The notes under the pieces: model-generated
The model's database searches: none
What the model saw: the letters and a program-made list of their open reading frames with translations, nothing else
What the model was told of the DNA's origin: nothing
Part shown: in pieces, positions 1 through 8,180 of the stretch
Numbering within the stretch: the stretch's first letter is position 1
How the letters are laid out: each line of letters opens with the position of its first letter
Virus record (IMG/VR): IMGVR_UViG_2579779116_000007
Coordinates: 1 to 9,947 of that record
Origin: a virus
Lineage: Duplodnaviria; Heunggongvirae; Uroviricota; Caudoviricetes
Length of the DNA: 9,947 nt
Direction: 5' to 3' (one strand)
Translations under genes and position numbers: made by a program

Positions 1-564
1 GCTTCATAGCCTGCTTCTCCTTGCCTTTCGGCACGTAAGAGGCTAACCTAGATTTGCCGTTCATAGATTGAGCCTCAGATTAATGTTAAGCGTCTTGCAG
101 GACGCGTAATGTTAACTGGGGCTTTTCTCTATCTGCCTTTTGGTGTTCATGCCTGAGACAGATAGCCTCAAGCACCCGCAGCAATTCTAACTATCCAATA
201 GATCAATGCCAACTTCTTTTCCTGCAACATCTCTCATCATAAGTGACCAAAATTCATCCAATCAGCACAAAAGAAACATTTAAAGCGTGAATGCTACCGA
301 ACGTTCATTTCAATTACATCGTTTTGATTTTTAACAGTTTTTACCTCAACAAATCAAATGGCATTAGCATTCATCATGGAAGAAAGACTGATAAAAATGA
401 TCATTTTCAATGACTTATGATCACACCGGGTATTGCCAAGTCATTCCTTTTACGCCAGGATACCCACAAGTGAGTAGTCGAGGAGAGTTTGCCAATTTTT
501 GCGATATAAATTTCAATGTCCGAAGAACCATTAATTGTTAATTGATTCTGTATAAGGTATTAAC

Positions 565-1662
565 ATGACAATTTCATATATTCCTATTCTGAAAGCGAAA
601 CGTTCTGAGTTATCAGCTTTATCGCAGCTATCCATTGAAAAGAAATCAAAAATTTTGCCATTACTCGAAATTGAACCAGTGCCAATTGACCCTGATTCAG
701 GTATTGCCTTAAAGAGTTATAACGAGACTCTTATAGAGTTCGGAAAGAAAGTCTCAAAATCTTGCTCAGATATGCAAGGTGTTTATATTGATGGATTATT
801 AATTGAAGAGCATTTTATTTCTCCTGAAGATCATTACCCTATAATAAATGCGGTTAATCAAGTTAGAGATATGGGGATAAGAGTTATTCCTGTCAGTTCA
901 CCAACTCGCCCATCTAACTATAAAAGAGCGATTGATGAATTAATGCAGAATGAAATATGCTTGAGATTAACCACGTTAGATCTGGTTAACCCACAATTAA
1001 TAACGCATTACATTAATCATCTGGGAATTCCTTTATCAAATATTGATATAATTATTGACTTAAGAGATGAGTTAACCGAGGATAAACTTAATTCCGGCGA
1101 ACTATATACTTTGGCAATGGGATTGATAAACAATCTGGCGCACCTCAATGAATACAGAAAAGTGATTCTTTCTGGGGGTTCATTTCCTACAGATCTCAGT
1201 GATATTTCTGTTGGTCTATATTCTCAACCTCGAATCGAGTGGATTTTATGGCAGAGTTTAATGAATAGAAAAGAACTTGCCAGAAATGTGATTTATAGTG
1301 ATTATGGAGTACAGCACCCCGACTTTAATAGGCTTTCGACGCGATTCCCTAACGTATCTGCCAGCGTCAGATACTCTGGAGATAATGACTTTTGGGTATT
1401 TCGAGGAAGAGTAGCTAATCGCTTTGGTTATGAACAATATGGTAAACATAGTGAGGATATTCTTGCTCATCGAGAATATTCAGGGCCTACATTCTGTGCG
1501 GGAGATAGAGACATAGAATATTATGCAAACGAGTATCAAGCCTACAAAGCCAATCCCTCTGGTAACTATAAATTTGGTAGCCCAGAGGTATGGCGTAGGA
1601 TTGGGCAAAACCATCACATAACTAAGGTTGTTGAGCAACTCGCCACTCTTTACGGGCTTTAA
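565..1662 (+). CDS. Hypothetical protein, 365 aa, AT-rich cargo gene; possible partner of the adjacent nuclease-like protein (from memory it resembles the uncharacterised sce7725-type partner family, unverified)
   Basis: ATG at 565 preceded by AAGGT (554-558) with a 6-nt spacer; uninterrupted 366-codon frame; codon usage rich in ATA/AGA/TTA, unlike the flanking prophage genes; no P-loop or methyltransferase motif recognised. Confidence 0.75.
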   Translation: MTISYIPILKAKRSELSALSQLSIEKKSKILPLLEIEPVPIDPDSGIALKSYNETLIEFGKKVSKSCSDMQGVYIDGLLIEEHFISPEDHYPIINAVNQVRDMGIRVIPVSSPTRPSNYKRAIDELMQNEICLRLTTLDLVNPQLITHYINHLGIPLSNIDIIIDLRDELTEDKLNSGELYTLAMGLINNLAHLNEYRKVILSGGSFPTDLSDISVGLYSQPRIEWILWQSLMNRKELARNVIYSDYGVQHPDFNRLSTRFPNVSASVRYSGDNDFWVFRGRVANRFGYEQYGKHSEDILAHREYSGPTFCAGDRDIEYYANEYQAYKANPSGNYKFGSPEVWRRIGQNHHITKVVEQLATLYGL

Positions 1663-2200
1663 GTTTAACTCGAACAGCTTCACGAAGCTCGCCAACATCC
1701 ATACTATTGGCGAGTTTTGACCATAAGACGCGTTTAGGTTTATTTTTCAAATTCTGTAGCTCCCCTACATCACTTAATAGGGAAAGCAATTCATCTTTCC
1801 AAAGAAGCATTGTTAAGGAAAGTTTGTCCACTTGTGGATTCAACTTGCTAGTTCGAATTGTTTTTAAATGGATACCTTGCCGTGCACCTTGCGTAACTTG
1901 CTTTATCCCCCACCATGATGGAACTATGCTTAAAGCATCATAAAGATGGCAATCAGAGACAACCAACGTTACTTTATCCATCACTGATGAGTAATGTTGC
2001 ACCTGCGCTGGTAATCTGAGCAAGTTATCACTTTTGCTCTTCAACTCATAACCATGTATAAGCCCATTGATCACTGCTATATCAGCTCTGCTAGCCCCCA
2101 GATTCATCGTAAACTCATCAATGATTAGGGTGTCAGGATCTTTATGATGATCTCTCAAAATCTTGGCATGCACAGCCTTTCTTACATCAATGTCTCTCAT
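1622..2200 (-). CDS. Hypothetical protein, 192 aa, with a putative PD-(D/E)xK nuclease-like core (E...D-x11-E-x-K); possibly sce7726-like (from memory, unverified)
   Basis: ATG at 2200 (weak SD); 193-codon frame; the segment IIDEF...SRADIAVINGLIHGYELKSKSD places acidic residues and a lysine in the spacing typical of restriction-endonuclease-fold active sites; 3' end overlaps the convergent 365-aa gene by 41 bp. Confidence 0.7.
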   Translation of the reverse strand: MRDIDVRKAVHAKILRDHHKDPDTLIIDEFTMNLGASRADIAVINGLIHGYELKSKSDNLLRLPAQVQHYSSVMDKVTLVVSDCHLYDALSIVPSWWGIKQVTQGARQGIHLKTIRTSKLNPQVDKLSLTMLLWKDELLSLLSDVGELQNLKNKPKRVLWSKLANSMDVGELREAVRVKLKARKEWRVAQQP

Positions 2201-2385
2201 ACCATAGTTGCGCTTTCATCGACTCTCTCAAGCCATGATTCTATATCATGGTTCGCATGAATGCCATTTGATATGACCAGTGGTTGAACATTGCACAGAA
2301 AAGTGGATGTGTATTTTAACAAAAGCAATGACGGCTAACCATGTTGGTATGTCGATAAAATGTTTCAACGTAAGCATTATCTGTT

Positions 2386-2401
2386 CCGCCCTTTCGGGCG
2401 G
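2386..2401. repeat. GC hairpin CCGCCC-TTTC-GGGCGG, copy A (reads as a GAAA tetraloop on the minus-strand transcript)
   Basis: Perfect 6-bp stem with 4-nt loop; an identical sequence recurs at 3061-3076; no U-tract follows on either strand. Confidence 0.7.
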
Positions 2402-2430
2402 CCTCCTGATGTTCTGAGGGTGCAGAAATC

Positions 2431-2481
2431 CCTCCGGTTAAGGATTAAATTGTATTTACAGCGCTAAATTTATTTATTCAG
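2431..2481 (-). promoter_or_regulatory. 51-bp intergenic module, copy A (AT-rich upstream region plus GGAGG SD) that is not followed by a gene: an empty cassette junction
   Basis: About 92% identical to 3306-3356; its last three bases form the TAA stop of the 118-aa gene; the body that module copy B drives is missing here, replaced by about 25 bp containing a short hairpin (GAGGG-n10-CCCTC, 2415-2434). Confidence 0.55.
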
Positions 2482-2830
2482 TTCTGGATTTTGTCGCCCT
2501 GCGTATCCGCGCTTTCGCGTTACGCTCAATCTGAATTAACTTTTCTATATTTTTCCGTCTTTCCTGTTCCTCCTGGCGCAATAGCCTTACATCATCTGCC
2601 AGTCTGGTTTCTCTTTTCGCCACTGAGAGCATCCAGTCAAACGGCTCCACAACTGCACCGCAGATTTTACAGCGGACCTGACGTTCTTTTTCGTCAACCC
2701 GGACAGAGGCGTGATGGCAATATGGTCTTTCCGATGGCTCATAAAGAAAATTAACCTGATTACGTGGGTCATCCTCTTTTGCCGGAAATAAAACAATATT
2801 ACTTAACTCATCTTCTGGTTTTATTTCCAT
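2474..2830 (-). CDS. Hypothetical small phage protein, 118 aa, with a Cys/His cluster (C-H-H...C-K-I-C) suggesting a zinc-ribbon
   Basis: ATG at 2830 with AGGAGAGGAG SD just upstream on the minus strand; the longer ORF-track start (2956) lacks an SD. Confidence 0.6.
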   Translation of the reverse strand: MEIKPEDELSNIVLFPAKEDDPRNQVNFLYEPSERPYCHHASVRVDEKERQVRCKICGAVVEPFDWMLSVAKRETRLADDVRLLRQEEQERRKNIEKLIQIERNAKARIRRATKSRTE

Positions 2831-3356: not shown

Positions 3357-3549
3357 GCGCGCGAATCTGTTCCGCACAATGCAACAATGCTTCTGTCACT
3401 TCCTTAAGCGTTACGGTATCGGCATCATCCAGTCCTGCAACTTTTGCGTGCCTGACAAACGCCGCGCAAAGGTCGTTAAACGCCCCTGCCCACACATCCG
3501 CCAGGAAAGCGTTGGCAGCAGCCAATTCTTGGTAGTCAATCCCGCTCAC
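3349..3549 (-). CDS. Hypothetical small phage protein, 66 aa
   Basis: GTG start at 3549 overlapping the upstream stop (GTGA), with AGGAGGTGG SD; the stop TAA lies inside module B. Confidence 0.5.
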   Translation of the reverse strand: MSGIDYQELAAANAFLADVWAGAFNDLCAAFVRHAKVAGLDDADTVTLKEVTEALLHCAEQIRAPE

Positions 3550-3962
3550 TGTGCCACCTCCTGAAAATTACCCTGATAAAACGCCAGCACTCGCTGCATA
3601 ACCTCACTATTCCGGCACTCGCGACAGATTATGTTCTGTCGTCTGTTGTAACGACGTATTTCTCCGTCTGGTAATGAATAAACCAAGTCCGGGTCGCTCT
3701 TTTTTTTCACTGCTGCTTTCGACATCTTTTTGCGGGCCTTTATCCAGTCCTTACGAGCCTGTTCAGACGGGAATAGTCCGTAGCCAGAGTTGTATACATC
3801 ACCACTGGCAACCAGCTCTCTGGCGAGAACGCTCATCAGGTATCTTGTCGCCCCTGTTTTAGCTTCCAGTTGCCGTAACGTCTCGCGCCCACTCTGGCGC
3901 ACGAGTTCAATAACCTGCCCTTTAATTTTTTCCCGCTCTTCTGGTGTAAATACTTTTGCCAT
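3546..3962 (-). CDS. Hypothetical phage protein, 138 aa, basic, with a C-terminal CRECR motif
   Basis: ATG at 3962 with GGAGG SD and a 5-nt spacer; the ORF-track start at 3977 is a TTG without an SD. Confidence 0.6.
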   Translation of the reverse strand: MAKVFTPEEREKIKGQVIELVRQSGRETLRQLEAKTGATRYLMSVLARELVASGDVYNSGYGLFPSEQARKDWIKARKKMSKAAVKKKSDPDLVYSLPDGEIRRYNRRQNIICRECRNSEVMQRVLAFYQGNFQEVAQ

Positions 3963-3977
3963 AGGTGCCTCCGGCAA

Positions 3978-4748
3978 TCACTTTTCCGACACAATACGAC
4001 TGGAGGAATCGAAAATATGTCGAACAATATCCCGGTGCTTGTTCAGCTCCCGCAGCGCGGCGCAGATTCGCTCCCACTTCTGGACATGATTTTTCGCCCG
4101 ACGCAGTTCGCGGTTTGCCATATGCAGCGATGGTAAAACCAGGTCATCCGCTCGCGTTTCAGTAAACGATGGCAGCGACTGCACAATGTCCGCCACCGTT
4201 TCTGTTTTAATATCTTCCTGTGTTGCAACCTCCTGTACTGGTAACGCAACCCCCGCTGGCTGAGGAAAGGCTTTACCATCAGTTTCCGCTACCGATGCGG
4301 CTTTCAGTTCTGCTGATAAATTCTCGCCTGGCATGCAGTAACGAAATTTACCGTTCTGATTAACGCGTGCCAGCCGCCCTGTTGAGGTTACTACCGCCAG
4401 CGTGGAAGCAACCTTGCGAATGCTGACACCGAACTTACCCGCCAGTTCCTCACACGTTTTAGCCCCCTCCTTGCCGATAAACTCAATCATCATGTCAGCG
4501 GTAACTTTTTGTTCGCCCACCCCGGTTAGCACATCCGGTGCTTCAGATTGTACTGGCTGCTCTTCGGTTACCCCGGATTCACCTTCACCAGCCAGAAACC
4601 AGGTATGACCTGTTTTATCAACGACGCCATTTCTTTTGAGTTCCCACAGCTCGTTCAGCACTTCTTCACGACTGATATCAAGTCGCGCGGCCAGTTCCAC
4701 CGACGTGGCTTTTCCCATTGCTTTCAGCGCGTCAAAAACAGTCTCCAT
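3978..4748 (-). CDS. Hypothetical prophage protein, 256 aa, with two winged-helix-like segments (possibly a full-length YdaW/DUF1627-type protein, from memory)
   Basis: ATG at 4748 with GGGAGGAAA SD; two segments with HTH character ([30 protein letters not shown] and [24 protein letters not shown]). Confidence 0.65.
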
Positions 4749-4770
4749 TAAAATTTCCTCCCGGTAAAAA

Positions 4771-5517
4771 TTACTTCTCAATTCCTGGCTGGATGACATT
4801 CGTGCGCCAGCTCTCCCAGTTAAAATTCACCCAGCGACCACCGTTCATGGTCATGCGGTCCATCACGCGCTCGCCAAGCAGCGTATTCATCGCCGTATGG
4901 TTCAGGTTCGTCAGCATCCCGACACTACGCATCGAAGCAGTTCTGCGGTCGACTATCTGGTTCAGTGTGACCTGCTCGTTGCGCGTATCCCGCTGCATTC
5001 CGATTTCATCCAGGACAAGCAGGTCAACATCACACAACCCCTGTAAAAATTTTTCGCCTGAGTTTTTGTTGTCGTAGCTGTTGTGTAACGCCAGCATCAC
5101 ATCAGCCACCGTTATCACAATCACGCTGCGACCTTTCGCCAGAAGATGATTGCCAATGGCGGCTGCAAGGTGGTTCTTTCCGGTACCCGGCTTACCGCTG
5201 AACACAAAATTCGTGCCCCCGGTCATCAGTTCGTCAGCGATGGATTTTGCCTGGCTCAGCGCATGTTTTTGCCCGTCGTTCTGCACCTGATAATTCGCAA
5301 ACGAGCATTTGCTGTGCAGAGGCTGGATGCCCGAACGATTCAGGATTTTTTCCACCCGCAACTGGCGATTCTGGCGGTTGCTCTCCTCGCTACGTTTTCG
5401 CCCTTCAGCCAGTTGCCACTCGCGCCACTCATCCACTGTCCGGTACGGCGCGATTACATGCTGCGGGGTCAGCTTACGGATACGCTCAAGAACACCACCT
5501 GCCGCGATATTTTTCAT
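4771..5517 (-). CDS. DnaC-like AAA+ helicase loader (phage P-equivalent; YdaV-like), 248 aa
   Basis: Walker [18 protein letters not shown] and Walker [10 protein letters not shown]; start lies 6 bp after the O-like gene's stop. Confidence 0.9.
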
Positions 5518-5523
5518 GGCCCG

Positions 5524-6471
5524 TTACCCCCTGAACCCCGGCGGAATTTCGGTATCCGGCTCAGAAATATGATTCACACAACGCTGTACAGACGAACGCC
5601 CCAGGCGGATAACCAGTTCATCCCATTTTTCGCGAAGCTTTGACGGACTCATGATATTTTTTACCCAGAATGGATCCCGCTGCACCCGACCAAACATTTC
5701 ACAAATTTGTCTGTGAGTTCTGCCATCCAGCATCCGCATTGTGCGCACGTCGTTGGCCCATGCGGTCCAGTTGGGTTCTTTCGGTCGCGAAATCTCGCCA
5801 TCATCGCTGGCGGCCTGCTCGTAAAGACTCACGATTCGCCCCCAGATCCACTGTGCACACGCCAAATCTTCCTGGTTACCCCACTGGCGTTTTTTCGCAC
5901 TGAACACAACCGCGTCAGGGTGTCGGGTTAAAAAGTCCTGTTCAGCCGTCTGCATGTCCGGTTGCGAAGCTTCCGGACGAAAAGATCTTTTATCTGACGA
6001 ATCAGGTTTTAATACTGACGGATCGGGGCCAACCATCGCCCCCCTATCCGACTGTTTTTTATCAACGGTTGATCCATCAAAATTTGATGGGTTAACCGTT
6101 GAGGGGGCAATATTTGACGGGTCATTTTTTGCCTGGCTAATTTTTCTTTTCGGTTTATATGCCTCACGCGCCGCCGCTGCTGCTGCTTCGAGTTTTTCCA
6201 CATTAAGACGGTAGATATTGCTTTCATTACGCCCACCGACCTTACGTTCCTCCTTCGTCAGCCAGCCGTTCTTTTCCAGTTCTGCTATCGCAGCTTTAAC
6301 CGTTGATTCACTCTTTGCCCCAATCTGACGACGAATGGTCTCCACCGCAGGCCATGACACACCTTCGTCATTGCTGTAATCTGCAAGGCGAGCCATAACT
6401 GCCACCCTGGATAAGATCATGCCGGTGAAGGCACACCCTTCCCAGACAAGACCATGAAGCTTGCTGCTCAT
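5524..6471 (-). CDS. Replication initiator, O-like/YdaU-like, 315 aa, with an N-terminal HTH and the origin iterons in its linker region
   Basis: ATG at 6471; N-terminal HTH-like segment; Ala-rich and Pro/Ser-rich linker whose coding DNA carries four iteron-like repeats followed by an AT-rich tract; positioned directly upstream of the DnaC-like gene. Confidence 0.8.
   Translation of the reverse strand: MSSKLHGLVWEGCAFTGMILSRVAVMARLADYSNDEGVSWPAVETIRRQIGAKSESTVKAAIAELEKNGWLTKEERKVGGRNESNIYRLNVEKLEAAAAAAREAYKPKRKISQAKNDPSNIAPSTVNPSNFDGSTVDKKQSDRGAMVGPDPSVLKPDSSDKRSFRPEASQPDMQTAEQDFLTRHPDAVVFSAKKRQWGNQEDLACAQWIWGRIVSLYEQAASDDGEISRPKEPNWTAWANDVRTMRMLDGRTHRQICEMFGRVQRDPFWVKNIMSPSKLREKWDELVIRLGRSSVQRCVNHISEPDTEIPPGFRG
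6061..6160. repeat. Putative phage replication origin: four iteron-like repeats (about 15-17 bp each, ending TTGAYGGG-like) plus an adjacent AT-rich tract, inside the O-like gene
   Basis: ATCAACGGTTGATCC / ATCAAAATTTGATGGG / TTAACCGTTGAGGGG / CAATATTTGACGGGTCA at 6061-6124, then TTTTTTGCCTGGCTAATTTTTCTTTTCGGTTTATAT. Confidence 0.6.
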
Positions 6472-6494
6472 AAAAAACTCCGAACACCGTGCTT

Positions 6495-6920
6495 TTAGTG
6501 CATCACCAAGGCATTTCCTGCCGGGCCACCACGATTCATCTGATTGAAACCAGCGATCGCCACTGCGACAAAATCATCAGCGTCTCTCACCAGTCGTTCC
6601 CGCGTCTCCACCAGCTCCCGAAAATAAGCTGAACTGTGGCTGCGCATTCTGGCCACCAGCAAAGGTGGCATTGCCTTTTCGATCGCTGGTAACAACGCCT
6701 GAATTTTTTCAACTGCATCAGGGGTGTCTTTCTCTACCCAGCGGAAAATTTTCTGGGTATTGCGAGCCAGGGCTTCCGGATGGCTGTCGTCATACAGTTC
6801 AGGAAACGTCATACCCAACTCAAAATAAGCCTGGGTTATTCCAGCTGCCGGAACTTTTTCACCATCCGGATGCGCCCAGGCATTCATCGCCATGCGGATG
6901 TGCTCATGTTTGATTTTCAT
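6495..6920 (-). CDS. ydaT: YdaT-family protein (CII-like regulator, historically annotated as a toxin), 141 aa
   Basis: Start MKIKHEH..., length and position after the Cro-like gene match Rac YdaT as I recall it; its ATG overlaps the upstream stop (ATGA). Confidence 0.75.
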   Translation of the reverse strand: MKIKHEHIRMAMNAWAHPDGEKVPAAGITQAYFELGMTFPELYDDSHPEALARNTQKIFRWVEKDTPDAVEKIQALLPAIEKAMPPLLVARMRSHSSAYFRELVETRERLVRDADDFVAVAIAGFNQMNRGGPAGNALVMH

Positions 6921-7219
6921 GAATCAACTCCATCAGATAAGCATGCACTACAATCACCTTCAGCATGAACTACATGTGTTTGCCCCAAACGAATGCCGCT
7001 CGCATACTCAGGCCAAATAAGCTCCCAATCATGGGGTCGTAGCTCCGCCCTACTTACTTGGCCTTCCGTCGCAGATTCGATCATAAGGGCGCGGGTTGGA
7101 GATATAGCTGCTCGTCCAGACGCCATTTGCGATAAGTAAGATGGCGATACACCAAGTCTGGCCGCGAATTTCTTAGCATCACCAACCCTCAATGATTTAA
7201 TAAACTCTTTTAATGTCAT
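6917..7219 (-). CDS. ydaS: Cro-like HTH regulator (YdaS-like), 100 aa, first gene of the leftward early operon
   Basis: ATG at 7219 with GAGGAAGG SD; HTH-like segment AARLGVSPSYLSQMASGRAAIS; divergent from the repressor gene. Confidence 0.7.
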   Translation of the reverse strand: MTLKEFIKSLRVGDAKKFAARLGVSPSYLSQMASGRAAISPTRALMIESATEGQVSRAELRPHDWELIWPEYASGIRLGQTHVVHAEGDCSACLSDGVDS

Positions 7220-7228
7220 ACCTTCCTC

Positions 7229-7316
7229 GGTTTAGTGTTTTTTTGCGAGTTTAGTGTTTAATAAACCATTAAGTCAAGTATTTGCTTGTTTAGTGATTAC
7301 TAAAGATAATTACCAC
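7229..7316. promoter_or_regulatory. Divergent immunity promoter/operator region: three direct GTTTAGTG(T/A)T repeats and two face-to-face sigma70-like promoters
   Basis: Repeats start at 7230, 7249 and 7288 (19 and 39 bp apart). Plus strand: TTGCTT (7282-7287), 17 bp, GATAAT (7305-7310), then 6 nt to the ATG at 7317, implying a leaderless repressor mRNA. Minus strand: TTGACT (reverse complement of 7272-7277), 18 bp, TAAACT. Confidence 0.55.
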
Positions 7317-7688
7317 ATGCAAAAAAAAGAAATTCGCCGTTTACGTCTCAAGGAGTGGTTTAAAGATAAAACTCTGCCACCCAAAGAGAAGAGCTACCTA
7401 TCTCAACTAATGAGTGGGAGAGCATCGTTTGGAGAAAAGGCTGCCAGAAGAATAGAGCAAACATACGGGATGCCGGAAGGGTATCTGGATGCGGAATACG
7501 CAGAACAACCGGAGGTTTCTCCACCACATGCAGGGTTAACGCCTAATCAACTGGAATTATTGCAGATTTTTTCAGCCTTCCCTGAGGATGAGCAACGCCA
7601 GATAATCAGCGAGTTAAAGCAGAAAAAAGAATCAATGGAAGATCTCATAGCGAGATGGATTGCGGCGCAAAAATGCCGCCGCGCCTGA
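7317..7688 (+). CDS. Prophage repressor / TA-associated regulator (CI/DicA-like, PaaR-like), 123 aa
   Basis: HTH-like segment KSYLSQLMSGRASFGEKAARRIEQTYG; no SD, but the promoter geometry predicts a leaderless start at this ATG; occupies the cI/dicA position; no S24 peptidase domain. Confidence 0.7.
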   Translation: MQKKEIRRLRLKEWFKDKTLPPKEKSYLSQLMSGRASFGEKAARRIEQTYGMPEGYLDAEYAEQPEVSPPHAGLTPNQLELLQIFSAFPEDEQRQIISELKQKKESMEDLIARWIAAQKCRRA

Positions 7689-7708
7689 GTTATAAAACCG
7701 GAGGAAAC

Positions 7709-7900
7709 ATGAATAGAGCCCTTTCACCAATGGTTTCTGAATTTGAAACCATTGAACAAGAAAACAGTTACAACGAATGGCTGCGTGCGAAAGTAGCAAC
7801 GAGCCTTGCAGATCCGCGCCCAGCAATTCCCCATGACGAAGTTGAGCGCAGAATGGCAGAACGCTTTGCTAAAATGCGCAAGGAACGGAGCAAGCAGTAA
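7709..7900 (+). CDS. Antitoxin of the ParE-family toxin (PaaA-like), 63 aa
   Basis: GGAGG SD (7700-7704) with a 4-nt spacer; the stop is 1 nt before the toxin ATG; the size matches the 63-aa PaaA2 antitoxin as I recall it. Confidence 0.75.
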   Translation: MNRALSPMVSEFETIEQENSYNEWLRAKVATSLADPRPAIPHDEVERRMAERFAKMRKERSKQ

Positions 7901-7901
7901 A

Positions 7902-8180
7902 ATGTTACCCGTGTTATGGCTTGAAAGCGCAGATACCGACCTAGATGATATAACTAGTTATATTGCTCGTTTCGACATAGATGCGGCTGAACGCTTATGG
8001 CAGCGATTAAGGGGTTGTGTGCTGCCGTTATCCGAACATCCGTATTTATACCCACCAAGCGACAGAGTACCTGGCTTGCGTGAGATTGTAGCCCACCCTA
8101 ACTATATAATTCTATACCGCGTAACAACATCAAGCGTTGAAGTAGTAAACGTGATCCACGCAAGACGCCAGTTTCCCTAA
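7902..8180 (+). CDS. parE: ParE/RelE-superfamily toxin, 92 aa
   Basis: Typical ParE features: N-terminal W...A..DL..I..YIA and C-terminal YRV...VEVVNVIHARR; tightly coupled to the upstream antitoxin. Confidence 0.8.
   Translation: MLPVLWLESADTDLDDITSYIARFDIDAAERLWQRLRGCVLPLSEHPYLYPPSDRVPGLREIVAHPNYIILYRVTTSSVEVVNVIHARRQFP

Follow-up and report, generated by a model that had tools for sequence, protein, structure and literature searches.

Two validated defense systems of Escherichia coli, gop-beta-cII of phage P4 and PD-lambda-2, are now catalogued as unrelated three-gene, toxin-antitoxin-like systems. The gop-beta-cII system protects against lambda and P1 (Rousset et al. 2022, PMC9122126), and its toxicity is triggered by the phage gene orf184 (2023 preprint, bioRxiv 10.1101/2023.04.06.535777); the toxicity of Gop in the absence of beta is attributed to Ghisotti 1990 by Rousset et al. 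(2022, PMC9122126). The P4 gene set consists of gop (plus strand, 133 amino acids), beta (plus strand, 355 amino acids), and cII (minus strand, 264 amino acids), the last of which converges on beta. PD-lambda-2 (Vassallo et al. 2022, PMC9519451) has three components: A, which is HigB-like; B, an Xre-peptidase that is toxic alone and is rescued by A; and C, described as "related to a P4 phage antitoxin," which is needed for defense and not for neutralization. Vassallo et al. (2022, PMC9519451) placed this system among abortive-infection, toxin-antitoxin-like systems. Here we describe a two-gene cassette that holds the common part of both systems, located in a 9,947-nucleotide (nt) stretch of the virus record IMGVR_UViG_2579779116_000007; this full stretch is referred to as the window, and all coordinates refer to it.

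The cassette consists of a beta gene at 565..1662 on the plus strand, encoding 365 amino acids, and a cII-like gene at 1622..2200 on the minus strand, encoding 192 amino acids. As the initial annotation had indicated, the two open reading frames (ORFs) are convergent; their 3' ends overlap by 41 nt (1622..1662), a stretch that is coding on both strands and specifies residues 353-365 of beta and residues 180-192 of the cII-like protein. A tblastn search of the window with P4 Gop gave a best expect (E) value of 2.0, and the gop gene that the gop_beta_cll definition places directly upstream of beta is absent. Searches with the A and B proteins of a natural PD-lambda-2-type locus, L040, gave best E values of at least 1.2 in the window for the HigB-like A and the Xre-helix-turn-helix (HTH)/M78 peptidase B. 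The 350-nt spacer upstream of beta holds no gop-like or other partner ORF, with no ORF of more than 43 amino acids at 150-600. Given that no gop, HigB-like, or Xre-M78 gene is present, the cassette falls outside the definitions of both named systems and yet retains the part that they share. We regard the identity and architecture of this bare beta-cII pair as nearly certain.

The 192-amino acid protein scored 191.1 bits against the NCBIfam profile NF033832 (sce7726; cutoff of 70), with its residues 1-184 aligned to profile positions 1-183 of 184, and it is thus a member of this family. It also matched the PADLOC "cll" model of gop_beta_cll (2.4e-28) and phrog_984. Precomputed assignments to the Pfam family PF26915 (Phage_P4_cII) exist for P0001, a homologue with 99% identity, and for each of the 120 homologues listed, and the protein was counted as belonging to this family as well. 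P4 cII itself scored 151 bits on sce7726_fam, above the cutoff. According to its structure model, the 192-amino acid protein has a PD-(D/E)xK nuclease fold, to which a helical region is appended at the C terminus. The arrangement E29...D40-x11-E52-x-K54, which the initial annotation had read as compatible with such a nuclease core, was confirmed, and its four residues show no variation in 97 of 97 distinct family members from all loci collected. An alignment that included P4 cII as well as actinophage and myxophage homologues showed E29, R38, D40, E52, K54, D58, R62, Q66, E137, and R183 to be invariant. No sequence-level match to any solved structure was obtained for this protein. The closest small PD-(D/E)xK nucleases are MmcB-like/SPO1766 (PDB code 3dnx), the Can2 nuclease domain, NucS, and type II restriction enzymes, the likeness being at the level of the fold only (22% identity to 3dnx); unlike these nucleases, the window protein is extended by a helical region at the C terminus and is paired with an obligate TIM-barrel partner. 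The cII-like protein is a putative magnesium-dependent nuclease.

The 365-amino acid protein matched Pfam Beta_protein (PF14350) with 179 bits (threshold of 27) over residues 5-356, corresponding to profile positions 1-341 of 342, and belongs to this family and to phrog_9159. Its closest PADLOC model was PD-Lambda-2_C (6.9e-42, residues 4-362), which identifies it as a component C, with a weak similarity to the P4 "beta" model (2e-4, 18 bits). Modeling indicated that the protein folds as a TIM barrel. The earlier statement that no motif could be assigned to it does not hold in light of the Pfam match and this model. Conserved polar residues (Y5, K12, E15, D76, R134, D161, D165, R198, R223, R240, D246, Y247, Y270, H350, and H351) were found mostly at the C-terminal ends of strands in the modeled barrel, a pattern that looks like an active or ligand-binding site, unlike what would be expected of a passive antitoxin. 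The beta family is large, with 5,126 clusters at 50% identity having E values of 1e-3 or lower and 2,654 having E values of 1e-30 or lower among 1.84 billion representatives, and the top 150 clusters were all approximately 350 to 420 amino acids in length and matched over nearly the whole length. A nucleic acid-modifying enzyme resembling the TGT/DpdA transglycosylases might be considered for such a barrel, with beta modifying nucleic acid and cII cutting unmodified invader DNA. Matches to these transglycosylases were no better than those to unrelated barrels, however, and we therefore rate this explanation as quite improbable.

The initial annotation had likened the two proteins to the sce7725/sce7726 pair. 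This proposal was half right: the 192-amino acid protein is sce7726, but its partner is not sce7725. Against the sce7725 profile (NCBIfam NF033831), the 365-amino acid protein scored 12.3 bits, compared with a cutoff of 60, with an E value of 0.1 and with only the NH2-terminal 35 residues aligned. Nine other Beta_protein partners from diverse loci also gave no match to the sce7725 model, making ten failures with the window protein included. The 35-residue NH2-terminal match is the sole hint of a distant kinship between beta and sce7725.

To place the pair in a wider context, we surveyed approximately 130 related loci from many phyla. A scan based on cII and covering one genome for each of 100,044 species yielded 260 relatives, of which the best 80 were examined; these came from Proteobacteria, Firmicutes, Acidobacteria, Chloroflexi, Melainabacteria, Patescibacteria, and other phyla. 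A Beta_protein ORF was located immediately downstream of cII in 74 of these 80 species-level loci and was convergent in every case, with two of the six remaining loci ending at a contig edge. A beta-based scan of viral loci (IMG/VR contigs), performed with a 20-sequence beta alignment, revealed cII in 50 of 50 loci, and the two genes were convergent and overlapping in 48 of them. The co-occurrence that the initial annotation had proposed to look for in gene neighborhoods was thus found. For 78 convergent pairs (the 74 genome loci, P4, two actinophages, and L006), the 3' ends overlapped in 75, with a median overlap of 48 nt and extremes of a gap of 39 nt and an overlap of 158 nt. The layout in Gordonia phage Powerball and Mycolicibacterium phage Mycofy1 is the same as that in the window.

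The genes upstream of beta were far less constant. A protein of approximately 400 to 425 amino acids with HTH and Peptidase_M78 domains was adjacent to and co-directional with beta in 13 genome loci as judged with Pfam, and a PD-lambda-2B-like protein was detected by tblastn anywhere in the locus in 17. A HigB-like gene was present further upstream of the peptidase gene in five loci by Pfam and in seven by tblastn, and a DUF6932 protein took the place of HigB in four genome loci. Gop was found upstream of beta only in P4. Neither the A and B genes nor Gop was present in about 55 of the 74 genome loci or in any of the viral loci. No third gene was conserved among the surveyed loci, and neither a conserved flanking partner nor a uniform defense-island context was found in them. 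The flanks were heterogeneous and included integrases, P4-type primases, Rz lysis genes, DNA methylases or restriction-modification genes, and caspase-like proteins; the pair was often chromosomal, adjoining restriction-modification or toxin-antitoxin genes. We conclude that the conserved unit is beta-cII, which occurs most commonly as the bare pair. The gop-beta-cII and PD-lambda-2 systems look like elaborations of this core.

Natural PD-lambda-2-type loci were found to carry a fourth gene, a convergent and overlapping cII/sce7726 gene that lies outside the published and PADLOC definition. This arrangement was observed at L040, L006, L051, L060, L062, L063, L065, L067, L068, L069, L081, and L083, where the other genes encode a HigB-like A or a DUF6932 protein, an Xre-M78 B, and a beta-like C. 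Comparison of L040 (1107-4395) with the PD-lambda-2 models gave values of 2.5e-37 for A, 3.7e-155 for B, and 4.1e-47 for C.

Departures from the pairing were also encountered. Rare examples of cII without beta were present at L080 (5498-8367), L082 (3329-6195), L084, and L015 (6001-7810). The place of beta beside cII is taken in Obscuribacterales and Melainabacteria by a convergent protein of approximately 712 amino acids. Co-directional ORFs follow cII in Xenorhabdus koppenhoeferi and, by the look of their sequences alone, resemble a protein kinase and a PP2C-type phosphatase.

The overlap between the two genes follows a fixed register. We measured this register in every locus from the codon for the invariant H351 of beta (1615-1617 in the window) to that for the invariant R183 of cII (1652-1654, minus strand), and the spacing was exactly 37 nt in 91 of 102 distinct loci, even though the beta proteins of these loci share a median identity of only about 29% (minimum of 17%). 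The length of the overlap was 2 modulo 3 in 98 of 100 overlapping pairs. Given the fixed spacing and this periodicity, differences in overlap length reflect stop codons that shift by whole codons rather than insertions or deletions. Residues V176, R177, L180, K181, R183, W186, and R187 of cII are encoded opposite the conserved T353, V355, L359, and L362 in the last helix of beta. The register has been left by P4, in which a terminator separates the two non-overlapping genes, by a Klebsiella/Edwardsiella/Pectobacterium clade (spacing of 76 nt), and by a Xenorhabdus/Photobacterium clade (spacing of 77 nt). With the register retained at such a low protein identity, the overlap provides an unusually clear bacterial example of both strands being used for coding over the long term.

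Candidate transcription signals were also sought around the two genes. A terminator-like hairpin followed by a U-run was detected at 1683..1719 on the plus strand, 3' of the beta stop codon and inside the coding sequence of cII, with a folding energy of -20 kcal/mol and a z-score of -3.8 relative to shuffled sequences; a consensus scan missed this hairpin because its loop is 11 nt. The hairpin may function as a terminator, and, if it does, the beta messenger RNA (mRNA) would be complementary to approximately 100 nt of the cII mRNA. A sigma-70-like promoter candidate (ATGGCA-18-TAGAAT, 9 of 12 consensus matches) is present upstream of cII at 2238..2267 on the minus strand. The beta promoter presumably resides in the AT-rich intergenic region upstream of beta (213..564, plus strand), although its position was not located. 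The interval between a small upstream ORF, whose end is at 2474, and the cII-like gene contains a GC-rich hairpin at 2386-2402 (GCCGCCC-GAAA-GGGCGGC, minus strand) that may end the early operon and leave cII on its own promoter.

Taken together, our analysis suggests that the bare pair most likely serves as an abortive-infection-type prophage defense. It is the core common to gop-beta-cII and PD-lambda-2, carried as cargo of a Rac-type prophage without accessory toxin genes. The effector would be the cII-like protein, acting as a Mg-dependent PD-(D/E)xK nuclease, and beta, a TIM barrel with a conserved polar pocket, would be its obligate partner, either sensing a phage cue or controlling the nuclease. 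The two genes appear to be transcribed toward each other from separate promoters, and the stretch of DNA that their C-terminal codons share in a fixed register ties the inheritance of both genes and renders the 3' ends of their mRNAs complementary. We infer a nuclease activity, a sensor or regulator role for beta, an antisense coupling of the transcripts, and an anti-phage phenotype of the bare pair, with the cII nuclease being the only plausible effector in it. The specific proposition of a defense module in which a cII nuclease effector is controlled by beta appears to us to be evenly balanced between true and false.

Natural disruptions of beta bear on the roles of the two proteins. Two independent IS1 events have split beta and left cII intact, one in E. 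coli PEC209 (L087, 1065-2938) and the other in an IMG/VR contig with an IS1-flanked inversion (L122, 4001-6900). The presence of cII without beta is evidently tolerated. Given these events, cII does not appear to be a constitutive toxin for which beta is the antidote, and a role for beta as an activator or sensor is favored.

Several points weigh against a bare pair that defends by itself. Published experiments cover relatives with extra genes, not the bare pair, and the established toxins are Gop in P4 (PMC9122126) and the Xre-peptidase in PD-lambda-2 (PMC9519451), not cII. The system definitions of PADLOC would probably not call the window locus. The published PD-lambda-2 insert ends 396 base pairs past the beta gene, and the full cII gene, if ECOR42 has one, is probably outside this insert and unneeded for that defense. 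Promoter-like matches in the region of the cassette are no more numerous than in shuffled sequence, and the promoter assignments are tentative for this reason.

Beta-cII might instead be a regulatory or adaptor chassis that requires an added toxin, either Gop or HigB plus Xre-M78, with the bare pair being non-defending and perhaps acting as a prophage-stabilizing addiction module or having a role in superinfection or, in keeping with the name "cII," control of lysogeny. The restriction of demonstrated toxicity to Gop and PD-lambda-2B so far, with neither beta nor cII among the toxic components, and the probable lack of a full cII gene in the PD-lambda-2 insert are both in line with such a chassis, as is the tolerance of natural beta disruptions. 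Pairs of HigB and ImmA/IrrE (Xre-M78) proteins homologous to A and B of PD-lambda-2 are also found on plasmids without beta or cII (L143, 2701-4188; L144, 2684-4212); because these pairs stand alone, A and B constitute a separable unit, which also agrees with the chassis. Against it stands the predominance of the bare pair, which accounts for about 55 of 74 genome loci and 50 of 50 viral loci. The conservation of the pair across phyla with an invariant set of nuclease catalytic residues is hard to square with a chassis that lacks an effector, and the pair occupies classical defense or moron slots. On balance we consider the chassis explanation rather unlikely.

A more far-reaching version of the defense interpretation, which we put forward tentatively as a possibility on the doubtful side, is that beta-cII is an autonomous and ancient immune module to which Gop and HigB/Xre-M78 were later added, that the overlap has been kept as a regulatory device, and that beta is a new type of sensor that licenses the nuclease. 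The device might operate through convergent transcription, for example, or through an RNA duplex that sets the ratio of beta to cII or responds to phage-induced changes in transcription, and beta might be an enzymatic or ligand-binding sensor licensing the PD-(D/E)xK nuclease.

The genomic setting of the cassette is that of mobile cargo. The window belongs to a lambdoid prophage of the Rac type, whose early operon runs on the minus strand, with genes in order of transcription for YdaS, a cro-like HTH protein (6917-7219), YdaT (6495-6920), an HTH_36 replication initiator (5524-6471), and an IstB/DnaC-like loader (4771-5517). The loader gene is followed on this strand by genes for DUF1627 and DUF977 proteins, small ORFs, and then the 192-amino acid gene. 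The cassette therefore sits at the distal end of the leftward early operon, past the replication genes, in agreement with the initial annotation; this YdaS/YdaT-replication operon is the counterpart of the rightward PR operon of lambda and is leftward merely in window coordinates. On its other side, at the left end of the window, the cassette is adjoined by a complete sok antisense RNA (2-177, minus strand; Rfam RF01794, 112 bits) and by the 5' end of hokD, whose start codon is at 5-7 on the minus strand. A strong promoter-like site is present near hokD/sok at 212..184 (minus strand), and in O121 strains an IS3 element is inserted in the hokD/sok region (L088).

The base composition of the cassette sets it apart from the replication genes, with a guanine-plus-cytosine (GC) content of 0.33 to 0.42 over 300-2250, including the upstream spacer, compared with 0.50 to 0.57 over those genes. 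The GC content at third codon positions is 0.30 for beta (565-1662) and 0.36 for the cII-like gene (1622-2200), compared with 0.50 to 0.65 for the replication genes (3546-6920). In beta, AGA accounts for 11 of 21 Arg codons, ATA for 10 of 35 Ile codons, and TTA for 15 of 38 Leu codons; the corresponding counts are 5 of 12, 4 of 11, and 6 of 27 for the cII-like gene and 1-4 of 10-27, 0-3 of 6-15, and 1-4 of 10-23 for the replication genes. The lower GC content and the frequent use of AGA, ATA, and TTA noted previously were thus confirmed by the counts.

E. coli carries a segment with at least 99% identity to window positions 1-2500, and 93 of 5426 complete genomes cover at least 80% of it in a single place. 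RefSeq names the two proteins in those genomes "beta family protein" (WP_000156212.1) and "sce7726 family protein" (WP_001204666.1), encoded between hokD and the early genes, and in the record of phage Rac-SA53 the same two genes are labeled "beta" and "CII phage-like protein." With both families, their names, and their membership in known defense systems already on record, the cassette is not an uncharacterized orphan, contrary to its first description as a candidate uncharacterized system. Taken in full, the window is mosaic: among complete E. coli genomes, none reaches 80% coverage of it in one place, with the best matches showing 60% to 64% coverage at 91% to 96% identity. Its immunity region contains a ParE-type pair (7655-8180, plus strand) that adjoins a repressor-like gene (7254-7688); the gene for the ParE-family toxin (7806-8180, plus strand; Pfam, 4.8e-16) is preceded by an overlapping, antitoxin-looking small ORF (7655-7900).

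A second, divergent bare beta/cII pair, with a 54%-identical cII and an overlap of 59 nt, was observed in E. coli lambdoid prophages (L090, 3134-4763; L091; L092), where its slot is between the Rz lysis genes and the terminase gene Nu1. The beta-cII pair is therefore present in three different cargo slots of E. coli mobile elements: between hokD and the nin-like genes, as in the window, between Rz and Nu1, and at the P4 hotspot. These occurrences bear on whether the pair might act in the phage's own DNA metabolism, for instance as an MmcB-like nuclease of repair or recombination that works with an accessory enzyme. The patchy occurrence in 93 of 5426 E. coli genomes, the atypical base composition, the unrelated slots in different elements, the frequent chromosomal locations beside restriction-modification or toxin-antitoxin genes, and the anti-phage phenotypes of relatives all speak against such a role, which we regard as improbable. 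It might also be supposed that the cassette has lost its function and is decaying within a cryptic prophage, given that Rac-type prophages are often defective and that insertion sequence (IS) elements have hit the locus in some strains. Both ORFs are intact, however, and full length relative to their family profiles, with every invariant residue present, and the sequences of both proteins are identical or near-identical across dozens of E. coli genomes and viral contigs; decay of this locus is thus extremely improbable.

No mechanistic papers on the beta, sce7725/sce7726, or Phage_P4_cII families or on gop_beta_cll were found in the searchable literature, nor was a description found there of the near-obligate convergent pairing, of a core common to the two systems, or of an antisense register maintained across phyla. 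The families and their names are already known; what is new here is the two-gene core without any known toxin gene.

Comparison with the described systems brings out both the shared core and the differences. P4 gop-beta-cII (gop_beta_cll in PADLOC; Rst_gop_beta_cll), like the window, combines a Beta_protein gene with a convergent sce7726/cII gene; the cII proteins of both have the invariant E/D/ExK set, and both systems are cargo of an E. coli mobile element. P4 additionally possesses gop, encoding a 133-amino acid Gop with hydrophobic NH2-terminal segments, whereas the window does not. The cII proteins of the window and of P4 share 28% identity over residues 22-127, and the C-terminal extension of approximately 70 amino acids in the P4 protein is missing from that of the window. 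In addition, the beta and cII genes of P4 do not overlap, with a 27-nt gap that holds the terminator and with loss of the fixed register, whereas those of the window overlap. For PD-lambda-2, the natural locus L040 resembles the window in having a convergent, overlapping cII gene beside a C-type beta, whereas the system as published and as represented in PADLOC is composed of three genes with cII not included; it also has a HigB-like A and an Xre-M78 B, neither of which is present in the window. This comparison suggests that both validated systems are elaborations of one widespread core consisting of a TIM-barrel beta and a PD-(D/E)xK cII, a core that travels mostly as a bare pair in phages and prophages and that would probably be overlooked by present detection rules. 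Should the bare pair protect alone, it would account for a family with undefined biochemistry and would be the simplest system with which to learn what beta senses and what cII cuts.

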